From a phage: 52,495 nucleotides of DNA. A program made the position numbers and the translations under genes. Location of the stretch: assembly GCA_028879995.1 (NCBI GenBank), contig GCA_028879995.1_4895.1; one strand, written 5' to 3'. The notes beneath the pieces were generated by a model, which saw only the letters and a program-made list of their open reading frames with translations, had not been told where the DNA came from and did no database searches. How positions within the stretch are numbered: the first letter of the stretch is position 1; each line of letters begins with the position of its first letter. This document shows positions 3,301 to 52,451 of this stretch, in pieces.

Positions 3301-3329
3301 TTTACTTTCGGTTTACCTGGCTATATAAT
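3301..3329 (+). promoter_or_regulatory. sigma70-like promoter TTTACT-N17-TATAAT (scaffold/capsid operon)
   Basis: Exact -35 TTTACT, 17-nt spacer, -10 TATAAT right after the portal stop. Confidence 0.55.
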
Positions 3330-5167: not shown

Positions 5168-5189
5168 CCCACAAACGGGACTAACAAAA

Positions 5190-5217
5190 GGCGAGCTGAC
5201 GAGCTCGCCTTTTTTTA
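5190..5217 (+). terminator. Intrinsic terminator after major capsid gene
   Basis: 8-bp GC-rich stem GGCGAGCT/AGCTCGCC, 4-nt loop, then T7. Confidence 0.75.
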
Positions 5218-5246
5218 TTTACACGTATAAAGTTCTGGTATATAAT
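5218..5246 (+). promoter_or_regulatory. sigma70-like promoter TTTACA-N17-TATAAT (neck/tail operon)
   Basis: Exact match to the recurring promoter pattern directly after the terminator. Confidence 0.6.
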
Positions 5247-5773: not shown

Positions 5774-6261
5774 TGATTCGTATACGCCTTGAACGTCGCG
5801 ACAAACAAAAGTTCGAGTTCACCTACCGTGCCTTTAAGTCGTTTGAAGGTCAAGGCGTATCAGTAGGTGTTCATCCAGAGCACAACAGACGTATAAATCC
5901 CAGGGACCGTATAACAAACGCCGAGCTAGCAATGGTGCATGAGTACGGTCTTAACGGCCTGCCAGAACGAAGCTTTCTTCGTAGTGCTGTTGGTGGCAGG
6001 GGTAAAGGCCGACAGGCAATAAACAAAGCTTTCCGCGATAATGTACCTGCTGTTCTCAGAGGAAGCATGACTGCGCATGAGCTTAACGACAAAATAGGTC
6101 GTATGCTTGTTGACGCTGTTCACGACAGAATGGACAGTGACGTGCCACCTCCTAACACCGAGCTGACAGAAGAACGCAAACGCGGGCCAGGTACACTTAG
6201 AGAATCTATGCAGTTGTATGATTCGATAGGGTACAAAGTTGGCAGAAACTGGAGGCTATAA
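5773..6261 (+). CDS. Neck/head-completion protein
   Basis: ATG 5773 overlaps upstream stop (TAATG); tool start 5704 is an upstream extension; 162 aa basic protein. Confidence 0.35.
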   Translation: MIRIRLERRDKQKFEFTYRAFKSFEGQGVSVGVHPEHNRRINPRDRITNAELAMVHEYGLNGLPERSFLRSAVGGRGKGRQAINKAFRDNVPAVLRGSMTAHELNDKIGRMLVDAVHDRMDSDVPPPNTELTEERKRGPGTLRESMQLYDSIGYKVGRNWRL

Positions 6262-6638
6262 TGCTCAAGATAACTTCGCTAATGAAGGATAAAACCTTTG
6301 TAGCATTAACAGATGTTCTTCTCCGAAATGATTCACGCTTACCAAACGGCGACTTCGAAGACGAATATACAGCTGCAAAGTATCTGTGTAACATTCAACC
6401 TGGTGCAGCTACTAACCAGCCTAACCTGTTGACTAAAGACGATGGCGAGCATGAGTTCCCACGTATTGCGATATACTGTGGACAAGAACTAAAGCTCGGA
6501 GACTTCGTTATATACGAAGACCAGCCATACCGTGTATTCCGTATCGACCCATGGAGTCGTCATGGCCACTACTACGTTACAGCAATTCTCCATAAAGGAC
6601 CTCAGGGAGCTCGTTCAGAAGCTTTTAACATTACCTGA
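6261..6638 (+). CDS. Hypothetical virion protein
   Basis: TAATG coupling to the upstream gene; 125 aa. Confidence 0.3.
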   Translation: MLKITSLMKDKTFVALTDVLLRNDSRLPNGDFEDEYTAAKYLCNIQPGAATNQPNLLTKDDGEHEFPRIAIYCGQELKLGDFVIYEDQPYRVFRIDPWSRHGHYYVTAILHKGPQGARSEAFNIT

Positions 6639-7089
6639 CGGTGCATGCATTATTGGTGAAGAGTCTGGTACAGTTGATGGTACGCCGTATGTTTATCTGC
6701 GTCCTGGTGATGCTTATGACTTCGGACCTCCTAGAACCAGACAAGGCTCTGACGGCTTTGAGTACGTCAGCAAGCCAATGATGACAGCTGTACGTATTAC
6801 AGCTGTCGGTAAGAATGCTGCTGAGCTAATGCGTAAGCTACACATAGCGCTGGGTAGTTCACCAGCTAAGCAGTTTAACCGTTTACGGCATTATGCAATA
6901 ACCAAAATATCGAAGATTGATAATGTCGGTGGTGCTATTGGTGCAGGCTATGCTCAGAAGTCAATGCTGACTGTTGATATTAGCTATGTGCATAAAGTTA
7001 AAATTGAGCAACCGTACATCTACAAGGTTGACATCACTTGTATGGATGACAACGGTAACAAAGCGACTGGTACAGTAGAGGAACCGTAA
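6562..7089 (+). CDS. Hypothetical virion protein (possible neck/tail terminator)
   Basis: First ATG at 6562; overlaps the previous ORF by 77 nt in another frame; start uncertain. Confidence 0.3.
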   Translation: MATTTLQQFSIKDLRELVQKLLTLPDGACIIGEESGTVDGTPYVYLRPGDAYDFGPPRTRQGSDGFEYVSKPMMTAVRITAVGKNAAELMRKLHIALGSSPAKQFNRLRHYAITKISKIDNVGGAIGAGYAQKSMLTVDISYVHKVKIEQPYIYKVDITCMDDNGNKATGTVEEP

Positions 7090-7712
7090 TGGCAACTGAA
7101 GTAGACCCGGAACTGCAAGCGCAGCTGGATAAGCTAACCACTGCTGTCCAGCTCATTCATGACTTCGGTATGTCAGGCGACCCAAACATCCCTAACCCGG
7201 AAGGCGGTGTCATACGCACGCTCGAAGGCATTAACGCTGCAATCAATGAAGCTATACCAAACTTTGAAAACGCTAACGAAGCTGCTATCCAGGCGCGTGC
7301 TGCTCGTGACGCGGCTATTGCAGCCAAAGAAGCTGCAGAAACGGCAGCTGAACAGGCCACAGTAGCTTCGACGTCAGCAATCTATGAGTACGGCAACGTT
7401 GCAAGTGCAGCTACCGTAACTATACCTGCTGCATCTAAAACAATTGTCAGCCTTACTCTTAACCAGCCAAACACCGTAATTAATATCGGTGGTGTATCTG
7501 ACCCGTCTACTGTTGCGCGTCAGATTACTATTGCTATTAAGCAAGGCACTGGTTCTAACAAGGTGACTTCTTGGGATCCAAGAATAAAATGGGCCAACAA
7601 CAGGAAGCCCGTTCTGTCATTCCTTGTGGGTTACACAGATGTTGTTACGTTGCTGACCTTTGACTCAGGCGCAACTTGGATGGGTTTCTTTAACGGTGGA
7701 TGGATTAAATAA
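7089..7712 (+). CDS. Hypothetical virion protein
   Basis: 207 aa, Ala/Glu-rich helical N-terminal half; TAATG coupling on both sides. Confidence 0.3.
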   Translation: MATEVDPELQAQLDKLTTAVQLIHDFGMSGDPNIPNPEGGVIRTLEGINAAINEAIPNFENANEAAIQARAARDAAIAAKEAAETAAEQATVASTSAIYEYGNVASAATVTIPAASKTIVSLTLNQPNTVINIGGVSDPSTVARQITIAIKQGTGSNKVTSWDPRIKWANNRKPVLSFLVGYTDVVTLLTFDSGATWMGFFNGGWIK

Positions 7713-10669
7713 TGCACACGATGTTGCTTAAAGACGGATCAGACCATCGAGCTAATGTCGAAAGCCTTATCGAAGGTCACCACCATTTTCTTGAGCGCAA
7801 TACTGGCAGAACTGACGACGCTACGCGTCAGCACTATATCTTCAATCCAGAAGGAGTAGTGTCGAACAACCGCCATTTTATTGCACACACCATGATGGAG
7901 TATCAACCTAACGGTGATGCTCCGTCTGAAAGTCAGTCGCTGCTAATACTCGGCGAAATTCACGCGTACCTTGCTACTAAGGAACAGCGGTACCTTGACA
8001 AAGCAATTGAGTACTTCAATGCTTACGTCAAGTACTATTACGAGGGGGACCCAATCCCTGATACTCCTCGTCGCTGGATCGCTAACTGGCTTTGTAATGG
8101 CAAAGAGCCTGTGCTAGCCAGCTTCCCAATCAACCCTGATTCACCAACACAAGGCGGCTATAAAAATGTGCCAGTTAAATTTGTTAACGGCAAAGCACAA
8201 ATCCCTCATGGTTCTCCTTTCTGGGGCGAGTACCTGGATGTTGCTACTTGGGCCCACAGGGGACACATGGCTTGGCCTGCTATTAATGGTGGTGTCCGTG
8301 TTATTAAAAATAAAGTTGACTGGGACGATATTTACAACAATTATCGCATCACTACCATGCCAGCTGACCCGTGGAATCAGTTAGCCTGGATTGACTGGCC
8401 GAGGTATCTGGGTGAACCAAGCTACACTGTGGACTGGTCTGCTGCTGAACCTCCTGTACATCTCATCGAGTATATTGTTGCATGGACCAATAACAAGATT
8501 GGTGTTCTACCTGGCAAAAACGATGAGCTATGGGGAGGTGAGATTCTTGAGACTGGACTGCCTGATTCTCGCAGAGGTGAGATTCAACTCCGTGACCATA
8601 CTATCAACGGTGTGTACCTGCTTAACTATGCTGTTAAGCTTCCTGTTGAACACGGTGGTTATTTGCTTAAGCGAAATGAAGTATGGCACAACAGACCGGT
8701 AAACGTTCCATTGTACGGCGAGCTTCAACGCGGTAATGCTGCTGATGCTGAGTTGTGGTTCTGTGACTGCTGCTATATGCTGTGGCGAATTACTAACGAG
8801 CAAAAGTATTACAACGCTTGGCAAGCTGTCCTGTTTACACTGGAGGAGTATATTGACATCGATAAACAAGACCAGTTCTTCCGACAAGACACTCACGCGT
8901 CGTCTCCGTTTACTGATGGTATCTCTTATGATTGGTCTTATCCTGAACTGGCACAAGCTATATATTCACGTGATGAAAATGGTTATATAGTTCTGCGTCA
9001 GAACGAAAAAGCTCAATCATCTCTGGAGCAACAGGCTGTATGGTTTAAGTGTAAGCCAACAGCTAAGATACGTACAGAGGTCGGTGGCAAAGATGATGCT
9101 GGTCAGAATATCAGTGTCAAGGTGGAAATGTACATGAACCGTGAGAAGGTTGACGTCGAGCAAAACATCTATCGTTTTGTCACACAGCTACCTGCTCTTG
9201 GTGCTTCGCCTGCTAACTACGACATTCCGTTAAGCGATTTTGTCGCAGGTACTAAGCCAGACGGTTCTGAGTATATCTTAGCTGATATTCGTTCATCCAC
9301 TGATTATGGTAATGCCACTATTGCAGTGTCTTACCGTACTGACATACTCGACAACAGACGTGGCAACACTGTTCGTATGACTATACCTGATAGTTCGTCA
9401 GGTGCCATTATAGGCTTTTGGCTACTGGAATCTTCCCAGGCACCTTTAAACTCGCTGACGTATACTTCTACAGGTCCGTTGTGCATCAAAGTAACTGACG
9501 CGCAAGGCTGGAGCTGGGTACGTGATTTACCTGCCGCATCAGGCTGGGTAACTCAGCAGATTCGCACCTGGGAGTTCAGGCTGGCGTCATACCAGGAAAA
9601 CACAGGTACACCACCAGCTAGCCCACAATTCGGCGAGATTAAGCAGTTCTCGTTTGTACTGCCTGACGGCGTTAATACGTCGACAAGTATTAGCTGGTAC
9701 TGTGTGAATGATGTTCCGCCTCGCTATAACTGGCCAATTGGTTATACGATTAAGTATCGTCTTACTTTCTCGGCTGATAACCCGTACACAGCTAAGCTTG
9801 GCGACTGTACTGTGCTGGACTATGAGAATGATAACCTTGCTTACACGCCAGGTGTTATTCCGTTCTCCAACATTTATAACCCTGATTCTAAGCAGTTCGA
9901 TGGTTGGCACGGTATACCTTACCCTGGCTATCAGTATCCGTTTGTCTTTACGCATGACGATACTGCAGCAGGTACAATCAGGCTGAACAACATGGTTAAC
10001 TTTTTGTACGATTCTCAGCAATGGTACTTTAAGAAGTTTGGTCAGCTAGGTCCTGGCGCATCTGCTTTTATCTGGAACCGTTGGGATAACTTTAAATACG
10101 GTGTACCTGATACGTTTACCATGTATCACTGGGGTAATGGTAGTGCATGGTCAGGTTACCAGCCTCGTGCTTATTTCTCCGCAGCACGTGGATGGTATGA
10201 GCTAGTAAACCGTGGTAAGCCAGTTCCGAGTAAGCTTATTGCTTATGTGGATAACTGGTCAAAATGGTTGCTTGACTTCATGGAAAGGTCAGGAGGTGTG
10301 TCGCCTTCTAACTTCCCACAAGAAGGTGTTGCTCTGCCAGTCCCTTCAGACTTCACAGGTCACATGTGCGGACTATGGCTTGCTGGTGCAGCTATGTCAG
10401 CCCTTTGTGGGTCAATGGTATCAGGACTGGATAAGCTGATGGACATGCTTGTTAATGAACTGGAAGACCATTACGACATAACTGGTATTCCGGGGCATGT
10501 AATGGATGGTGGTTGGTCACCAGCGTTACGCCTTGAAACTGGTTCAGGACCTGAAAGCAACGCCATGTACTATGGTTTTTACTCTGGCGAAATATTACGA
10601 GGGTTGGGCTTATACCTGCTGTACAAAAACAAAGGGGCTAAAGCAGATATTTATGATTTAGGCCCGTAA
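7712..10669 (+). CDS. Large virion-associated protein, possible carbohydrate-active/receptor-interacting protein
   Basis: 985 aa, Trp/Tyr/Gly-rich; in the structural operon between neck genes and Ig-like proteins; function inferred from composition and position only. Confidence 0.3.
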   Translation: MHTMLLKDGSDHRANVESLIEGHHHFLERNTGRTDDATRQHYIFNPEGVVSNNRHFIAHTMMEYQPNGDAPSESQSLLILGEIHAYLATKEQRYLDKAIEYFNAYVKYYYEGDPIPDTPRRWIANWLCNGKEPVLASFPINPDSPTQGGYKNVPVKFVNGKAQIPHGSPFWGEYLDVATWAHRGHMAWPAINGGVRVIKNKVDWDDIYNNYRITTMPADPWNQLAWIDWPRYLGEPSYTVDWSAAEPPVHLIEYIVAWTNNKIGVLPGKNDELWGGEILETGLPDSRRGEIQLRDHTINGVYLLNYAVKLPVEHGGYLLKRNEVWHNRPVNVPLYGELQRGNAADAELWFCDCCYMLWRITNEQKYYNAWQAVLFTLEEYIDIDKQDQFFRQDTHASSPFTDGISYDWSYPELAQAIYSRDENGYIVLRQNEKAQSSLEQQAVWFKCKPTAKIRTEVGGKDDAGQNISVKVEMYMNREKVDVEQNIYRFVTQLPALGASPANYDIPLSDFVAGTKPDGSEYILADIRSSTDYGNATIAVSYRTDILDNRRGNTVRMTIPDSSSGAIIGFWLLESSQAPLNSLTYTSTGPLCIKVTDAQGWSWVRDLPAASGWVTQQIRTWEFRLASYQENTGTPPASPQFGEIKQFSFVLPDGVNTSTSISWYCVNDVPPRYNWPIGYTIKYRLTFSADNPYTAKLGDCTVLDYENDNLAYTPGVIPFSNIYNPDSKQFDGWHGIPYPGYQYPFVFTHDDTAAGTIRLNNMVNFLYDSQQWYFKKFGQLGPGASAFIWNRWDNFKYGVPDTFTMYHWGNGSAWSGYQPRAYFSAARGWYELVNRGKPVPSKLIAYVDNWSKWLLDFMERSGGVSPSNFPQEGVALPVPSDFTGHMCGLWLAGAAMSALCGSMVSGLDKLMDMLVNELEDHYDITGIPGHVMDGGWSPALRLETGSGPESNAMYYGFYSGEILRGLGLYLLYKNKGAKADIYDLGP

Positions 10670-10675
10670 CCACTA

Positions 10676-10704
10676 TTTACTTAACTGAGGCGCCAGCCTA
10701 TAAT
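10676..10704 (+). promoter_or_regulatory. sigma70-like promoter TTTACT-N17-TATAAT embedded in palindrome GCGCCAGC-N9-GCTGGCGC
   Basis: -10 TATAAT lies in the loop of an 8-bp inverted repeat (10690-10714). Confidence 0.55.
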
Positions 10705-10736
10705 AAGCTGGCGCACCCAATAAGAGGATTCTCCAG

Positions 10737-11375
10737 ATGGCAAATCGTACTACAGCCAACCGTCCTGTTAAAGACGCAGACCTGCGTCAAGAGTCGGTTA
10801 CTCAGTTCCCGTTATCCAAGCCGACCAAGCTTGACGAGAACGGAAAATTCATTCCAACCCCGGTTACCGGTGTAACTGCTACACCTAAGGCTAAGTCAAT
10901 TGCTGTTGGTGAGTTTACAACTCTGTCAGCAGCAGTAGCCCCGGTAGACGCGGACGACGTTACTGTATTGTGGGAAAGCAATGCACCTGACAAAGCCACT
11001 GTTGATGGTTCAGGTCGTGTTCAGGGTATCAAAGTTGGTTCAGCAACTATTACTGCTAAATCCAAGCTTGACCCTTCCAAAACCGATACTGTAGCAATTA
11101 CGGTAACTGCTCCGCCTGTGGCCGTCACTGGTGTTACGTTAGCGCCTAAGTCGCCAAGTGTTGTAGTAGGCTCTACTGTACAGCTGACTGCAACTGTGCT
11201 GCCTGCTGGCGCTACTAACAAAGCTGTTACCTACGAATCAAACGACCAGGCTAAAGCTACCGTTAGCGCAACTGGTCTGGTGACTGGTAAAGCAGCTGGC
11301 GTCGTCACCATCACTGTCAAAACAGCTGATGGCAGCTTCACTGACACCGCGTCAGTAACTGTTACTGCTGAGTAA
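10737..11375 (+). CDS. Ig-like (Big_2-type) domain protein
   Basis: Two repeats of the bacterial Ig-like pattern (VTGVT...V.VG.T.QL.ATV.P..AT...VT..S...TV...G.VTG...G..TIT). Confidence 0.55.
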   Translation: MANRTTANRPVKDADLRQESVTQFPLSKPTKLDENGKFIPTPVTGVTATPKAKSIAVGEFTTLSAAVAPVDADDVTVLWESNAPDKATVDGSGRVQGIKVGSATITAKSKLDPSKTDTVAITVTAPPVAVTGVTLAPKSPSVVVGSTVQLTATVLPAGATNKAVTYESNDQAKATVSATGLVTGKAAGVVTITVKTADGSFTDTASVTVTAE

Positions 11376-11386
11376 GGAGCTGATTG

Positions 11387-13516
11387 ATGTCGCTTCCACT
11401 TAATGAGGTTGTCGACGTACAGTTCAGTAAGAGCAACGGGGGTAAAGGTTTTACCCCCAATGTTCCGCTGGAAGGTATAATGCTTTCCAACTACGAGTAC
11501 TCAATCGTCGCGGGTGATGACCCTGTTCAGCTAGTTGTGCGTTACATTCCAACCAACGCTACTGAGCGTGGTATGGCATGGAAATCTAGCGACCCGGACG
11601 TTATCACTGTTGATGAGCTCGGATTTGTGAAGCCACTGGCGGAAGGTGTTGCATACGTGACTGGTACGTCTGTTGACGGCGGTTATACAGTACGGGCAAA
11701 GTTTAACATTGCTCGGGCACCTATCCTTGTTGAATCTGTTACAGTGTCTCCCACAAGTGTGACACTTGAAGAGGGCAAGACTCAACGCCTGACATACACC
11801 TATTTACCTGCTAATGCAGACAAACCTGATTTCTACTGGATTTCAGACGATGAGTCTGTTGCTGTCGTTAACGACAGCGGGCTTGTCACTGCCATTGGAG
11901 ATGGCGAAACAACTGTAAACGTACAGTACGGTGTTGACAGCTCTATATTCGATAGCTGTACTGTAACTGTTATTCCGCCTGTTGTACACGTTACAGGAGT
12001 TGAGTTTCTTACTCAGTCGCCTCTTAACGTTAATATCGGAAGCACAGCTGGGACTAGTATTCGTATATCGCCAGAAGACGCCACTGACAAAACAGTGACG
12101 TATGAAAGCAGTGTACCTGATGTAGCAACTGTGGATACTGACGGAAATGTTACTGGTATTACAGCTGGTAATGCCACTGTTACTGTTAAGACGAATGACG
12201 GTGATAAGACTGACACTCTTGACATTATAGTCAGGGTGCCTGCTGTAAATGTTACCGGCGTAAGTATTGACGAAGGCGATACAGCTTCCATGGAAGTTGG
12301 GGACACTCTTCAGCTACATGCCACTGTGACTCCTGAAAATGCTACTGACCCATCTGTTGTATGGAGTGCTCCTGTATCAGAAGTTGCGTCTGTGACTGAA
12401 GCTGGTTTGGTAACTGCTAACGCTGCAGGCTTAATTGATGTTACTGTTATCACTAATGACGGGAACTTTACTGACAGAATCGAGGTTAAAGTTACAGACC
12501 CTAGCATCGCAGTTACGGATGTTGCATGGGCTCCTGACTCTCCGACTAAAGTAAGTGCCGGCCATCAGGTGCAGACTAAAATTGTTATAACACCTAACAA
12601 CGCAACCAACAAAAAAGTTAGCTACAATAGCTCAAACCCAGACGCTGTTACTGTTGACACTAACGGAGTTATATACGGTCAATCACCTGGAACTTCGACT
12701 ATTACAGTTACAACAGACGACGGTGGACTTGTTGCTTCATTTGTAGCGACTTGCACAGAGGTGGCTGTTATTACACCAGATGGTCTTGGTGGTATTCCAG
12801 TCGGTGGTACTCAGCAGTTCACTTACACTGTTAGCCCGTCTGATGCTGACCTGACTAATATTCGTTATGAGTCTGCTAACCCAGATATTGCAACTGTTGA
12901 TTCATCAGGCGTTGTAACTGGTGTTGCTAGCGGCGGATGTAACATCTGGATTTACGCAACTAGCAATGGTGCTGACATTAGCGCAGCTACTTGGGCACAA
13001 ATTTCTGAGAAGGTACAGGTATACCCTCAGTATGCCGAATGGCTTGTGGGTAACACCAAACAGCTTGATGTTGAGATTTACCCGTCGGACTCTAAGAGCG
13101 TTACCGTTACTTATGAATCGTCAAATGACGCTATCATTAGTATAGATGCAAATGGCTTGATGACTGCTAAGTCTGAAGGTTCAGCAACTATTACTGCTAA
13201 CGTTGTGATGAACGGTGTTGCTGCTTCTGGTACAACATCTCCTTACGTGTCTGAGCTTTCTGTTGCTACTGATTCGCTGCCTGCACTTACTGTTGGCAAC
13301 ACGCAGCAGCTGGTTATAACTGTTAGACCTGAATACGCTAAGACAGACCCAGGCTATAACATTCAGTATACAACTACAGACGATACTGTCGCTACTGTAA
13401 GTAATACCGGTGTTATTACTGGCGTTGGTAACGGTGGATGTCGTATTGGTGCCACAGTAACTGTGAGAAATGCTACAGCGTCGGACAGCTCTTATCAGTC
13501 CGTCGATGCAGCATAA
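11387..13516 (+). CDS. Multi-domain Ig-like (Big_2-type) virion protein
   Basis: About seven tandem Ig-like repeats; ATG 11387 has RBS AAGGAG 7 nt upstream (tool start 11384 is TTG). Confidence 0.55.
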   Translation: MSLPLNEVVDVQFSKSNGGKGFTPNVPLEGIMLSNYEYSIVAGDDPVQLVVRYIPTNATERGMAWKSSDPDVITVDELGFVKPLAEGVAYVTGTSVDGGYTVRAKFNIARAPILVESVTVSPTSVTLEEGKTQRLTYTYLPANADKPDFYWISDDESVAVVNDSGLVTAIGDGETTVNVQYGVDSSIFDSCTVTVIPPVVHVTGVEFLTQSPLNVNIGSTAGTSIRISPEDATDKTVTYESSVPDVATVDTDGNVTGITAGNATVTVKTNDGDKTDTLDIIVRVPAVNVTGVSIDEGDTASMEVGDTLQLHATVTPENATDPSVVWSAPVSEVASVTEAGLVTANAAGLIDVTVITNDGNFTDRIEVKVTDPSIAVTDVAWAPDSPTKVSAGHQVQTKIVITPNNATNKKVSYNSSNPDAVTVDTNGVIYGQSPGTSTITVTTDDGGLVASFVATCTEVAVITPDGLGGIPVGGTQQFTYTVSPSDADLTNIRYESANPDIATVDSSGVVTGVASGGCNIWIYATSNGADISAATWAQISEKVQVYPQYAEWLVGNTKQLDVEIYPSDSKSVTVTYESSNDAIISIDANGLMTAKSEGSATITANVVMNGVAASGTTSPYVSELSVATDSLPALTVGNTQQLVITVRPEYAKTDPGYNIQYTTTDDTVATVSNTGVITGVGNGGCRIGATVTVRNATASDSSYQSVDAA

Positions 13517-13541: not shown

Positions 13542-13570
13542 TTTACTTGGTTAAACTTACTGAGTATAAT
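13542..13570 (+). promoter_or_regulatory. sigma70-like promoter TTTACT-N17-TATAAT flanked by inverted repeat GGCCATT/AATGGCC
   Basis: Promoter elements between 7-bp inverted repeats at 13537-13543 and 13568-13574. Confidence 0.55.
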
Positions 13571-13602: not shown

Positions 13603-14742
13603 ATGCCGTTGAATGTAAACCAGATTGTAAACGTTCAACTGAACAACACTCCAACTGGTATCAGCAAAGGTGACTTCGGTAAGCTGGCTCTTTTAACTCA
13701 GGACCCTGGCACTGCTTTTCCTGACAGCGACAACGGACACTATGTTGAAATCGGCAGCTACTCTGAAGCCGAGTCTTATTGGGGTACTGGTTCAGTTGTA
13801 CTTGGCGCGCTGAAGATTTTCTTTGCACAATCTCCGCGTCCTCGTTCAGTAGTTATCGCCTCATGGAGCAACACCTCTACTCTGGATGCGGCTATTAAAG
13901 CATTCAACGATGTGTATCCTGACTGGTATGTTCTGCGTCCGCTTCCGCCTACTGGCGAGCTGTCTGACGATGACATCAGTTTGCTGGCGTCAACTGTTGC
14001 TGCTTACGATAAAAAACGTTGCAGCTACACTACCACTAAAGCAACTCATATTGAAAACAGCGACTCCAACCCGATTAAAGTTCTGGCTGGTAAAGGCTAC
14101 AACAATATGTGGCTTCAGTACGATAAGAACAACCAACACTATGCAGACATTTCTGCTATGGCGCGTGCTCTGTCTGTTAACTTCTCAGGTAACCGCACTA
14201 CGATTACCATGAAGTTCAAACAAGAGCCTGGTATTACACCGAACAACACTTTAACGCTCACTGAAGCTAACAAGTGTAAAGCGCTGGGTATTAACTGGTA
14301 CACCTACTACAGCACCTTTGCTATGCTTGCAGAAGGTACTGTCCTCGGTACGTCCAAGCCGCCGCGCTTCTGGGATGAAGTACATGGTCTCGACTGGTTC
14401 TGTAATGCTGTCCAGACTTACGTCTTCAACTCAATCGCTACGTCACCCACGAAGGTGCCGCAGACTAACAAAGGTCACGAGCGCCTTACCGGTGCTGCAG
14501 CTGTTGCTTGTCAGCAGGCTGTCGACAACGGCTTGGTTGCACCTGGTATCTGGTACGGTGATGAGTTTGGTACACTGTCTTATGGTGACCGACTCGAGAC
14601 AGGTTTCTACATCTACATCCCTGACGTAGATGACCAGCCTCTGGATGAGCGTGAAGCTCGTCAGGCCGTTGTAATGCAAATCGCGATTAAGCTGGCTGGT
14701 GCAATCCACTCCAGTGACATCCTGATTAACTTCACTCGCTAA
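13603..14742 (+). CDS. Putative tail sheath protein (alternatively a large major tail protein)
   Basis: 379 aa first gene after promoter 13542-13570; followed by a 143-aa tube-sized protein, chaperone, tape measure and Mu/P2-like baseplate genes. Confidence 0.4.
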   Translation: MPLNVNQIVNVQLNNTPTGISKGDFGKLALLTQDPGTAFPDSDNGHYVEIGSYSEAESYWGTGSVVLGALKIFFAQSPRPRSVVIASWSNTSTLDAAIKAFNDVYPDWYVLRPLPPTGELSDDDISLLASTVAAYDKKRCSYTTTKATHIENSDSNPIKVLAGKGYNNMWLQYDKNNQHYADISAMARALSVNFSGNRTTITMKFKQEPGITPNNTLTLTEANKCKALGINWYTYYSTFAMLAEGTVLGTSKPPRFWDEVHGLDWFCNAVQTYVFNSIATSPTKVPQTNKGHERLTGAAAVACQQAVDNGLVAPGIWYGDEFGTLSYGDRLETGFYIYIPDVDDQPLDEREARQAVVMQIAIKLAGAIHSSDILINFTR

Positions 14743-19663: not shown

Positions 19664-20310
19664 TGTCAGCTATTGATTATAATACAGCAACACTTGATGA
19701 GGCAATTGAGGCTGCACTGTTTGCTGCAATGATTGGTAAGCGCCACTGTTTACCTGGCCGCATAGTATCGTTTAACAGCAACCTACAGACTGTTGTTGTT
19801 GAACCTATGGTCAGTGCTGAAAACGAAGATGGTTCAATGAGACCGCTACCACCAGCAGCTGATGTTCCTTTGTTCCAGCTAGGCGGTGGTGATTTTGTTA
19901 TAACGCTTGAACCAAAGAAAGGCGACCCGTGCTTACTTCTTGTTGCTGACAGATGTATTGACGTATGGTATGAGCTGGCTGAAAACGCTATACCAGGTGA
20001 CTTCCGACAGAACGACCTGTCAGACTGCTTCTGTCTTGTGGGCTTCAGACCTAAGCCTCTGAAGATAACAAACTGGATGGAAGGCGTAACTATACGTAAG
20101 GTTGACGGAAGTCACTATATCAATATTAATAATGCTGGCAAGGTATCAATAAAGGCCACAGCAGTAGACTTGCTTGATACGCCAACACTTAATGCACCAA
20201 ACACAGAAGCCAAGTTTAAAGAAGTTGACATTGGCGGCGTTAAGATGTCCAAACACAGACACCAAGAAAACGGTGACGGTGGCGGTATTACTAATGGCCC
20301 GCAAAACTAG
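19663..20310 (+). CDS. Baseplate central spike protein (gpV-like)
   Basis: 215 aa, size and position match P2 gpV / Mu gp45-type spikes; Gly-rich C-terminus. Confidence 0.45.
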   Translation: MSAIDYNTATLDEAIEAALFAAMIGKRHCLPGRIVSFNSNLQTVVVEPMVSAENEDGSMRPLPPAADVPLFQLGGGDFVITLEPKKGDPCLLLVADRCIDVWYELAENAIPGDFRQNDLSDCFCLVGFRPKPLKITNWMEGVTIRKVDGSHYININNAGKVSIKATAVDLLDTPTLNAPNTEAKFKEVDIGGVKMSKHRHQENGDGGGITNGPQN

Positions 20311-20320
20311 GTAACCCACA

Positions 20321-20692
20321 ATGCGAACAAGACGACTCGATTCAAACTGGGACTGGAATTTTGGGCGTGGCCGACTTGACTACGCCGATACGTCTGAGTC
20401 CATTGAACAACGCATCGTGCAGATACTCCGCTGCTATACTATGGACTGGGTACATGACCTGGACTATGGCATTGACTGGTTCGGACTAATGGAGAAGCCT
20501 GTTCGATGGGCTGACCTTGAGGCTGCAATCAAAACAGCAATACTTGCGGAGTATGGAGTTAGTTCTATCGAGAGCTTTACCCTAAGCTTCGACCCTGACT
20601 CACGTCACGCTGTTTATTCGGTTGAGGTTAATGATATTTACCACAACACAACCTCTATTAACAGAAGTATTAATTTAACCGGAGAAAACTGA
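20321..20692 (+). CDS. Baseplate wedge protein (gpW/gp25-like)
   Basis: 123 aa, size and position between spike and J-like protein. Confidence 0.4.
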   Translation: MRTRRLDSNWDWNFGRGRLDYADTSESIEQRIVQILRCYTMDWVHDLDYGIDWFGLMEKPVRWADLEAAIKTAILAEYGVSSIESFTLSFDPDSRHAVYSVEVNDIYHNTTSINRSINLTGEN

Positions 20693-21864
20693 TGGGCTCT
20701 GTAACTAGCACAGGCTATGTTCCCGTCAAGCTCGACGACTGGATCAGCAGATTCGAAACGCTCTTCCGTCGTGTGTATGGCGCGGATATTGATTTGTCAG
20801 CTAAGTCTGCTGACGGACAAATGGTTGGTATTCTGGCGCAGATGTTTGCAGACCAGGACGAGCAAGTTGCAATTCTGTTTTCTATGCTTGACCCTAACCA
20901 GGCATCTGGTGTATACGTAGACCAGTTCCTTGCCTACGTAGCGCTTCAGCGTAAAGGCGAGATGTCAACGCTGTTGACCAGGGTTAAGATTGAAGGTGAC
21001 CGTAACACTATTATACGTACTCCTTACTATGTAACTGACAGCTCGAATAACGTGTACCAGCTTAACTCCACTGTTGCGCTGGATGATAACGGTGTAGTCG
21101 AAACAAGCTTCAGTTCTGTTAAGACTGGCCGCTTTGTCGTACTTGCAAACGATGAGCTTAAACCACAGACCATCGTTTCTGGTGTGCGTAAAGTTACCAA
21201 CATGCAAGTGTCGTCTGGCGGTGCGTCCACTGAGCTCGACTCTGAGGCAATAGACCGTGCGTATAACTCTTACGGCAAACCTGGCACGAACAGCTTAGAC
21301 GGTATTGTTGCTGAGATTCGTCAGATGACTGATGTTATCGCGTGTAACGGTTACGAGAACGAAGAAGATACTCGGGACCCGTTAACTGGCTTACCTCCTC
21401 ACAGTATGCAGATTGTTGTGGATGGTGGTTCGCCTGCTGCTATTGCTGACTGTATCTTCCGTCGTAAGACTAATGGCTGTAAGCAGATTGGCACTGTGTC
21501 TTATCAGATTACGGATAAGTCAGGTACACAGCGCACAATGAAATGGAGTCAGCCTACTTATGTTGAGGCTTATGCTTCACTTGTTGTAGCCCGTAAGGAA
21601 CTGTTTACCGACGTTTCCGAGGAACTTATTAAGAATGCTATTCTGTCCAAGGTATACAATATCGGTGAAGAGGTATCAACCTATGAACTTGGCCAGCTGA
21701 TTCAAGAAGCGAATGGCGTAAGCCCCAACTTCTACATCAAAACTTTCTTTGTGGGTAAATCAGCTAATCCGTCGACAGATACGATTCTGCGTATCACTGC
21801 TCTTGAGCGTGCAATATTCACTGCAGACCGTATCACTATTGCAGTGGTGAATGCTGATGGCTGA
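20692..21864 (+). CDS. Baseplate J-like protein
   Basis: 390 aa, ATGA coupling to upstream gene; position. Confidence 0.45.
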   Translation: MGSVTSTGYVPVKLDDWISRFETLFRRVYGADIDLSAKSADGQMVGILAQMFADQDEQVAILFSMLDPNQASGVYVDQFLAYVALQRKGEMSTLLTRVKIEGDRNTIIRTPYYVTDSSNNVYQLNSTVALDDNGVVETSFSSVKTGRFVVLANDELKPQTIVSGVRKVTNMQVSSGGASTELDSEAIDRAYNSYGKPGTNSLDGIVAEIRQMTDVIACNGYENEEDTRDPLTGLPPHSMQIVVDGGSPAAIADCIFRRKTNGCKQIGTVSYQITDKSGTQRTMKWSQPTYVEAYASLVVARKELFTDVSEELIKNAILSKVYNIGEEVSTYELGQLIQEANGVSPNFYIKTFFVGKSANPSTDTILRITALERAIFTADRITIAVVNADG

Positions 21865-52422: not shown

Positions 52423-52451
52423 TTTACTTACTTCGCGTAACTCGTTATAAT
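52423..52451 (+). promoter_or_regulatory. sigma70-like promoter TTTACT-N17-TATAAT
   Basis: Exact consensus upstream of the gene starting at 52484. Confidence 0.55.

Follow-up and report, generated by a model that had tools for sequence, protein, structure and literature searches.

The window analyzed here, a 52,495-nucleotide (nt) stretch of phage contig GCA_028879995.1_4895.1, corresponds to Salmonella phage BP63 (Rosemountvirus), with 100% identity to KM366099 and NC_031250. Four open reading frames (ORFs), gp28 to gp31, lie between its tail terminator and tail sheath genes and are named in RefSeq "tail fiber protein," "tail protein," "structural protein with Ig domain" (Ig, immunoglobulin), and "major tail protein," respectively. 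Comparison of gene order, sequence, and predicted structure suggests that these ORFs form a conserved accessory cassette of the tail, in which gp28 and gp29 constitute a putative adaptor-enzyme pair, with a glycoside hydrolase family 8 (GH8)-like fold predicted for gp29, and gp30 and gp31 are putative Ig-repeat adhesins. The genes of the block and its borders, with lengths in amino acids (aa), are as follows.

6532 to 7089, plus strand: tail terminator gene, upstream border of the insertion (Pfam PF23961, E = 1.7e-16; annotated start at 6562)
7089 to 7712, plus strand: gp28, 207 aa, phi92 gp140 family, predicted small adaptor or short-fiber protein
7712 to 10669, plus strand: gp29, 985 aa, phi92 gp141 family, tail protein with a predicted GH8-like (alpha/alpha)6-barrel fold
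10737 to 11375, plus strand: gp30, 212 aa, short Ig protein (Pfam Big_2, E = 2.8e-34)
11387 to 13516, plus strand: gp31, long, hypervariable, fiber-like Ig-repeat protein (Pfam Big_2, E = 1.2e-93, eight stretches), 709 aa from the annotated ATG (11387) or 710 aa from a TTG (11384)
13603 to 14742, plus strand: tail sheath gene, downstream context (Pfam DUF3383, E = 4.5e-72; phrog_205, "tail sheath")

The block was found at the same site in all members of the BP63 lineage that were examined, including Rosemountvirus, Loughboroughvirus (SE4, S144, and ZCSE2), a more distant relative (L014), and Erwinia phage SOI901. More distant phages that share the sheath-hub-spike-gpJ-gpI synteny contained no homologues of gp28 to gp31 within 10 kb upstream of the sheath gene, and in two of them (L016 and L017) just a few bases separate a PF23961 terminator gene from the DUF3383 sheath gene behind it. 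Because terminator and sheath genes are adjacent in these relatives, the block is, as judged from gene order, a real insertion, specific to the BP63 lineage. No composition anomaly was detected in the block; its GC content (0.45 to 0.49) resembles that of neighboring genes, so a sign of recent foreign origin is absent. A preliminary description made from the letters of the window had placed four ORFs between the neck genes and the sheath gene and called them an unusual insert. Their coordinates and their insertion relative to L016 and L017 agree with the ORF calls and synteny reported here, but the insert is standard at this site throughout the relatives examined; the cassette is conserved and previously annotated rather than an oddity of the BP63 genome.

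The cassette appears to be divided into two transcription units. Start and stop codons overlap as TAATG at 7089 (gp28) and 7712 (gp29), coupling each of these genes to the preceding stop, and gp30 begins after a 67-bp gap that carries a promoter and an inverted repeat, both conserved in relatives.

10676 to 10704, plus strand: predicted sigma70-like promoter TTTACT-N17-TATAAT, ahead of both Ig genes (10 of 12 hexamer matches; annotated in the BP63 and S144 records)
10690 to 10714, plus strand: inverted repeat (predicted hairpin) GCGCCAGC-N9-GCTGGCGC around the -10 box

Both hexamers of this promoter are invariant across five lineages, and its position is conserved. The hairpin has a predicted RNA folding energy of -18.4 kcal/mol (z = -4.45), and no U tract follows it on the 3' side. 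In L014 its arms carry two compensatory double substitutions (96.8% paired, with the observed score reached by 37 of 500 shuffles), and one further compensatory change can be read from the sequence of SOI901. The element could stabilize or attenuate the upstream transcript or be a site for a regulator. gp31 starts 8 to 11 nt after the end of gp30, with an AAGGAG Shine-Dalgarno sequence, and gp30 and gp31 are predicted to be driven together by their own sigma70-type promoter. This arrangement revises the preliminary description on two points. Translational coupling to the neck genes had been proposed for the first three genes and holds for gp28 and gp29 but not for gp30, and the promoter embedded in a palindrome (10676 to 10714), which had been assigned to the fourth gene, precedes the third.

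Homologues of gp29 were found in 533 phage records and homologues of the gp28 C-terminal domain in 521, with near-identical taxon counts. The taxa included rV5-like and phi92-like phages, Phapecoctavirus, Erwinia phage phiEa21-4, jumbo phages of the genus Seoulvirus, and several podophages. gp29 matched phrog_2871 with a score of 1,427 bits, which indicates full-length homology to the tail-protein family of phi92 gp141 (PHROG 2871). Full-length homologues with at least 44% identity formed 310 clusters, and a profile search of 1.84 billion proteins recovered 372 cluster representatives. A gp28-type gene lay directly upstream of the gp29 homologue in every cross-checked genome (rV5, phage A4, SPFM2, Philippe, PHB05, and near-identical Vibrio phages). 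The upstream ORF also matched gp28 in a phi92-like myovirus (E = 3e-19), in a Queuovirinae-like siphovirus, where the pair lies downstream of a gpJ-like tail-tip gene (E = 6e-22), and in an SU10-like podovirus (E = 5e-34). The pair was seen upstream of, or fused within, four tail architectures, and this recurrence suggests an obligate adaptor-enzyme pair across myo-, sipho-, and podoviruses.

In phi92, the pair corresponds to gp140 and gp141, as deduced from the gene order of PHB05 and from the match of ORF17 to gp141 given in the S144 record itself. The phi92 wedge protein gp145, which has a fiber-docking domain, had been suspected as the gp29 homologue from a gpI fusion; it was ruled out because PHB05 gene order and the S144 and phi92 annotations lead to gp141. 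As in BP63, homologous adjacent pairs (PHROG 27998-related and PHROG 2871) are present in phi92, rV5, Phapecoctavirus, PVP-SE1, phiEa21-4, and Seoulvirus, and gp29 is 42% identical, over 96% of its length, to the phi92-like protein (tblastn). The two settings differ in that the phi92-like pair lies in the baseplate and fiber block, after the spike and sheath-initiator genes and before fiber and tailspike genes, whereas the BP63 pair sits in the terminator-sheath interval, ahead of Ig-repeat genes; the small proteins also differ in their N-terminal parts.

Members of the gp29 family were also found fused to other tail modules. These included P2 gpI at the N terminus (in a P2-like prophage, at the gpI position) and, at the C terminus, the podophage Gp77 fiber-tail adaptor, noncontractile tail sheath domains, or Big_2 strings of about 700 residues, the last in proteins of about 1,690 aa. 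Such partners suggest that the family sits on the outside of the tail, and a GH8-like protein with a Big_2 string amounts to a gp29-gp31 fusion. At the locus for lateral tail fibers in the Queuovirinae-like siphovirus, a homologous small protein precedes a GH8-like protein with a fused Big_2 string (1,687 aa in all), after the gpJ-like tail-tip gene. The same three module types as in BP63 are thus found in one fiber locus, with enzyme and Ig string in one polypeptide, whereas the BP63 myovirus encodes them in separate genes and separate transcription units. Some public records carry host labels that look erroneous: PP583539 ("Listeria phage 220426122051") is near-identical to Rosemountvirus, and MG0656xx records labeled "Campylobacter phage" (B15, C2, A147, and others) are near-identical to rV5/phi92-like coliphages.

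gp28 is predicted to consist of N-terminal helices, an Ala-rich helix at residues 59 to 97 (nt 7263 to 7379), and a beta-sandwich at about residues 100 to 206 (nt 7386 to 7709). Its Ala content is 15.5%, compared with a background of 8.5%. The earlier reading of gp28 as a helical, Ala- and Glu-rich protein is accurate for Ala and the long helix, but Glu is enriched within helix 58 to 98 alone. The beta-sandwich is conserved, with 35 to 39% identity to phi92 gene 140 (which is among the 521 records) and PHB05 gp132, and the N-terminal part differs among phage contexts. Searches of PDB chain sequences, Pfam, and NCBIfam with gp28 gave no matches. The predicted fold is of the adaptor type, with moderate scores, as in branched receptor-binding complexes (the N-terminal XD domains of CBA120 TSP4, T4 gp9/gp10, and the K1E/K1-5 adaptor), to which gp28 has no sequence similarity. 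gp28 is a putative small adaptor and is probably trimeric.

Like gp28, gp29 had no match among PDB chain sequences, Pfam, or NCBIfam. It is enriched in Trp (3.7%, versus a background of 1.5%) and Tyr (6.3% versus 3.4%), as the preliminary description had stated, but not in Gly, which that description had also listed. The structure prediction and fold search that it had proposed gave a confident model (predicted local distance difference test score [pLDDT], 89.6; predicted template modeling score [pTM], 0.86) and identified a predicted glycoside-hydrolase (alpha/alpha)6 barrel of the GH8 type. Helical hairpins at residues 13 to 109, 344 to 386, and 743 to 974 form this barrel, which is interrupted by two beta-rich inserts.

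7748 to 8089, 8717 to 8911, and 9827 to 10636, plus strand: gp29 barrel segments (residues 13 to 126, 336 to 400, and 706 to 975)
8090 to 8716 and 8912 to 9826, plus strand: gp29 beta-rich inserts (residues 127 to 335 and 401 to 705)
7922 to 7939, plus strand: gp29 PSESQS, residues 71 to 76 (family consensus TTEGQS), at the start of barrel helix 2, with the invariant Glu73 as candidate catalytic acid
8735 to 8752, plus strand: gp29 NAADAE, residues 342 to 347, at the start of barrel helix 4, resembling the GH8 signature A-[ST]-D-[AG]-D

GH8 enzymes have their proton donor in an [ST]EGQ motif and carry the signature A-[ST]-D-[AG]-D, at equivalent helices. In the bacterial cellulase BcsZ, which belongs to GH8, the donor is Glu55, within its [ST]EGQ motif. 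In gp29, Gln75 is near-invariant within the first motif, which also occurs in Erwinia phage SOI901 and coincides with a predicted helix at residues 72 to 89, and Asn342, Asp345, Glu347, and Trp349 are invariant in the family. Invariant columns made up 16 to 23% of positions in the barrel segments and 36% in the lead-in at residues 706 to 750, versus 5.6% in residues 401 to 705. A local hhalign alignment restricted to the N-terminal region paired TTEGQS with TSEGQS at residues 53 to 58 of BcsZ (weak, E = 0.048), and the spliced barrel of a homologue (P0011) matched the Pfam Glyco_hydro_8 profile across both motifs at 12.4 bits (E = 0.077), below the cutoff of 24. Native gp29 did not match Pfam PF01270 at the gathering score, the family profile retrieved no GH8 structure from PDB (its one match, to helical hairpins of a GH76 enzyme, was at chance level), and the spliced barrel aligned with E. 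coli BcsZ by hhalign without overall significance and in a different register. No bridge from the gp29 family to cellular GH8 families was recovered in the exhaustive profile search of 1.84 billion proteins.

Support for equating Glu73 and Asp345/Glu347 with the GH8 catalytic residues is thus weak but consistent. Identity between gp29 and GH8 enzymes (E. coli BcsZ, C. thermocellum CelA, and C. perfringens CPF_2247; clan GH-M, six hairpins) is 7 to 14%, and gp29 differs from them in its inserts of about 210 and 305 residues and in belonging to a small, distinct family. The protein is best described as GH8-like in predicted fold and probably catalytic, short of a demonstrated GH8 member. The authors of the S144 study reported a hydrolase-like HHpred match for ORF17, the gp29 homologue, the S144 record names phi92 gp141 as the match of that ORF, and phi92 gp141 appears as a predicted glycosidase in the table of a review.

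The two proteins encoded behind the internal promoter, which had been described as Ig-like and of 212 and 710 aa, contain Pfam PF02368 (Big_2) repeats above threshold, two in gp30 (117 bits) and eight in gp31 (307 bits). gp30 consists of an N-terminal segment of about 40 residues and two Big_2 domains, and its counterpart in L014 (L014 positions 7269 to 7706; 145 aa) has one. At least five allele classes of gp31 were distinguished in 63 records. Its length among relatives is 622 to 709 aa, a range of about one repeat, and several lineages, including SPLA11 (L008; positions 19676 to 21544), have proteins of 622 to 628 aa. No tandem repeats were detected at the DNA level in the Ig genes, which rules out recent repeat slippage as the origin of this length variation. 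The most constant part of gp31 is its N terminus.

11387 to 11458, plus strand: first 24 residues of gp31, MSLPLNEVVDVQFSKSNGGKGFTP, presumed virion-attachment segment

These residues are identical, or changed at one position, in Rosemountvirus and Loughboroughvirus alleles, including the SE4-type allele with 49% overall identity; the distant L014 and SOI901 proteins retain the core motif of this segment and no more. Proteins in which a fixed segment for attachment bears a variable, host-interacting body usually show this pattern. Phage Ig-like domains are said, in work credited to Fraser et al. (2006-2007) and Barr et al. (2013), to be weak binders of carbohydrates and to promote adsorption or adherence to mucus. 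Big_2 repeats are likewise found on the virion proteins lambda gpV (C terminus), T4 Hoc, T5 pb10, and the "major tail protein" PHROGs. gp30 and gp31 differ from lambda gpV, Hoc, and pb10 in being free-standing proteins of two and eight repeats with their own promoter rather than tube or capsid appendages, and gp31 differs further in being hypervariable with an invariant N-terminal anchor. Within the Big_2 string, residues 410 to 449 of gp31 matched Pfam HL_N-beta (the N-terminal beta-sheet of hyaluronate lyase; E = 7e-10), probably a cross-match between Ig-like folds.

Rates of change within the lineage were compared with BP63 as the query against SPLA2, SPLA11, and SE4. Identities in these three phages were 97%, 97%, and 78% for gp28; 99%, 97%, and 83% for gp29; and 97%, 92%, and 75% for gp30. 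gp31 was 97%, 69.7%, and 49% identical, with neighboring genes at 92 to 100% (Rosemountvirus) and 71 to 97% (SE4). In L014, gp29 was 77% identical versus 56 to 60% for neck proteins, and identities in the gp29 family were 42 to 48% across phages of Escherichia, Erwinia, Cronobacter, Acinetobacter, and Pseudomonas and about 30% in Vibrio phages. On these values, gp28, gp29, and gp30 appear to evolve like core tail proteins.

Published experiments on sister phage S144 place homologues of most of the cassette in the virion. Electrospray ionization tandem mass spectrometry of S144 virions detected gp16, gp17 (25 peptides), and gp18 (80% coverage), and the S144 record confirmed that gp16 to gp19 map to gp28 to gp31. 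The proteins listed did not include gp19, the gp31 homologue. gp31 is poor in Lys and Arg and yields 16 usable tryptic peptides, so this absence is not decisive. Absence from virions, one of the findings that the preliminary description had named as speaking against its reading, was thus not observed for the sister-phage homologues of gp28, gp29, and gp30, with the gp31 homologue unlisted. The S144 authors assigned receptor binding to a Mu gpS-like fiber gene after the baseplate genes.

In transposon-directed insertion site sequencing, Rosemountvirus SPLA2 required cellulose biosynthesis genes, and SPLA11 gave hits related to lipopolysaccharide. The Mu-like fibers of these two phages are 97.7% identical and all other virion proteins except gp31 are at least 93% identical; gp31 is 68.6% identical and, in SPLA11, 87 aa shorter. 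gp31 is therefore the first candidate for the difference in host factors, a correlation from two phages and not proof.

Taken together, these data favor, with a probability of roughly 60%, an accessory tail-appendage cassette in which a glycan-cutting gp28-gp29 pair is combined with the Ig adhesins gp30 and gp31. Its insertion at the terminator-sheath junction would date to the common ancestor of the BP63 lineage. Both gp28 and gp29 would be cotranslated from the neck operon and act as a pair, in which gp28 would be attached to the virion by its phage-specific N-terminal part and would hold gp29 with the conserved C-terminal beta-sandwich. gp29 would present a six-hairpin GH8-like barrel with two beta-rich inserts and with Glu73 and Asp345/Glu347 at the barrel mouth, and it would most likely cleave a beta-linked glycan, of the surface or matrix, shared by many Gram-negative hosts rather than serotype specific. 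gp30 and gp31, expressed from their own promoter, would serve as weak multivalent glycan adhesins, gp31 being anchored by its invariant 24-residue N terminus while its fast-evolving repeat string tunes the surface polymer of first contact. Irreversible binding would be left to the Mu-like tail fiber encoded after the baseplate genes.

gp29 might instead be a catalytically dead structural hub, its barrel serving as a scaffold or branching node for appendages, for example as the arm of the L-shaped fiber I of phi92. The docked appendages would be the Ig proteins here and tailspikes or fibers in phi92- and rV5-like phages. The phi92-like pair is directly followed by fiber and tailspike genes, and the phi92 cryo-electron microscopy (cryo-EM) paper describes an unidentified arm-like scaffold that bears the endosialidase, with a second fiber branching from its base. 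The fusion of Big_2 strings or further tail domains to C termini in the gp29 family shows that the family carries other modules, and high conservation also fits a structural interface. Such a hub is nevertheless considered unlikely. The barrel holds the main concentration of invariant columns, of which many have acidic, polar, or aromatic residues (Glu73 and Asp345/Glu347 among them), as expected for a catalytic pocket that binds sugars and not for a docking surface; catalysis and a role as scaffold can coexist.

An adhesin role for gp30 and gp31 has to be weighed against passive decoration of the capsid, sheath, or neck, in the manner of Hoc or the lambda gpV C terminus, with stabilization or adherence to mucus or the environment as the function and no part in host recognition. 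The classification of phrog_215 ("structural protein with Ig domain") under head and packaging, the abundance of S144 gp18 in virions, and the mucosal binding proposed by the LPSEYT authors are all in keeping with decoration, and the short BP63-type sheath (379 aa, partial DUF3383) makes decoration in trans conceivable. This reading is doubtful given that no other virion gene evolves nearly as fast as gp31, whose N terminus for attachment is conserved, a combination that usually marks a host-interacting fiber. Between SPLA2 and SPLA11, whose host-factor dependence differs, gp31 is also the sole virion gene with strong divergence, and in a siphovirus the GH8-like tail protein at the lateral-fiber position carries homologous Big_2 strings as a fusion.

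The preferred reading of a glycan-active appendage can be narrowed to a specific and rather speculative form. The correlation of gp31 with cellulose dependence in SPLA2 and SPLA11, together with a GH8-like enzyme in the same cassette (GH8 being the family of BcsZ), motivates the hypothesis that gp28-gp29 is a portable beta-glucanase that is carried on the virion, belongs to a new GH8-like family, and, with gp31, forms a device against the cellulose (phosphoethanolamine-cellulose) biofilm matrix. gp31 alleles would set cellulose dependence (present in SPLA2 and absent in SPLA11), and gp29 would cut the matrix. The same module, in more than 500 phages of many genera, would be the arm or hub of the "Swiss-army-knife" fibers of phi92 and rV5.

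Attachment of gp31 could also be imagined at the neck or sheath, as a whisker whose N-terminal strand mimics the sheath N-arm and inserts into the sheath "handshake" beta-sheet. The best match to the gp31 N terminus among the 134 ORFs of the window was the sheath N terminus (score, 38, versus 25 for the next; N termini only; shuffle P = 0.005). This resemblance recurs in L014 and SOI901, a whisker would explain the location of the gene between the terminator and sheath genes, and scanning transmission electron microscopy of ZCSE2 mentions a collar. The match is short, however, at about 13 to 23 residues, and a whisker is rated quite unlikely because in phi92 the terminator itself fills, with a beta-hairpin, the handshake site left free in the last sheath ring.

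That gp29 is a classical host-range depolymerase or tailspike for a specific O antigen or capsule accords with "tail fiber" or "tail protein" annotations in many records and with the hydrolase-like match of S144 ORF17 but is very improbable, since the predicted fold is an (alpha/alpha)6 barrel and not the trimeric beta-helix of a tailspike and since conservation like that of core tail proteins across host genera excludes serotype specificity. Of the decoration, fiber, or depolymerase modules for glycan binding suggested in the preliminary description, a broad reading as virion-borne fiber, decoration, or glycan-active modules is favored by the barrel fold, the Big_2 repeats, and the S144 virion data; the host-range depolymerase is not.

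Tail and Ig-domain annotations of these genes, the hydrolase-like match of S144 ORF17, and the "glycosidase" listing of phi92 gp141 were already available. The present analysis adds the comparative proof of insertion, the predicted obligate pairing of adaptor and enzyme with its fusion partners across myo-, sipho-, and podoviruses, and a confidently modeled GH8-like fold with conserved candidate catalytic residues. It also adds a corrected operon structure with a conserved promoter in a hairpin, and the recognition of gp31 as a hypervariable, N-terminally anchored component whose allele correlates with published cellulose dependence. Rosemountviruses are being developed as biocontrol agents for Salmonella and E. 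coli, and what is known of the basis of their adsorption extends to a Mu-like fiber. The gp29 family is among the most widespread phage tail proteins without an assigned function or position, and neither the BASEL paper nor the phi92 cryo-EM paper could, by its own account, match genes to particular lateral fibers. A GH8-like barrel with a conserved pocket, a constant small adaptor, and fusions to gpI, a podovirus adaptor, and Ig strings make the function of gp29 a testable question. If gp29 actively cuts a conserved matrix glycan, it could be a broadly useful antibiofilm enzyme, and swaps of gp31 alleles could rationally alter host-factor dependence.

Further observations concern the surroundings of the cassette. 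The window has the motif TTTACW-N17-TATAAT in five exact copies, the promoter ahead of gp30 among them; all are on the plus strand, and none is expected by chance. Four lie within the structural gene block and split it into units, and the fifth is at the window end.

3301 to 3329, 5218 to 5246, 10676 to 10704, 13542 to 13570, and 52423 to 52451, plus strand: copies of TTTACW-N17-TATAAT
13542 to 13570, plus strand: predicted sheath-operon promoter, downstream border (kept in five lineages; flanked by GGCCAT...ATGGCC)

The inverted repeat GGCCAT...ATGGCC at the sheath promoter is invariant; in Erwinia phage SOI901 it reads CCTGGCCAT...ATGGCCAGG. Promoters inside inverted repeats may be a general feature of the BP63-type phage group. 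A strong intrinsic terminator (5186 to 5213; 12-bp stem and T run) lies directly 3' of the major capsid gene and is followed at once by the promoter at 5218. The tail terminator ORF, whether read from a GTG at 6532 or from the annotated start at 6562, overlaps the preceding gene (6261 to 6638) by 77 to 107 nt, which is unusually long. The 379-aa sheath protein matched the DUF3383 profile at the N-terminal end and at positions 203 to 493 alone. Sheaths of distant relatives are about 490 aa long, that of L017 matching DUF3383 over its full length, and the BP63-type sheath thus appears to lack an internal domain of about 110 to 140 residues. Finally, a 123-aa ORF at 20321 to 20692 had subthreshold matches to Sheath_initiator and GPW_gp25. 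A 2026 paper claimed the 123-aa DUF7173 protein "gp38" of Rosemountvirus SD286 as a receptor-binding protein; if it corresponds to this ORF, which is a putative equivalence, the claimed receptor-binding protein would be a gp25-like baseplate protein.

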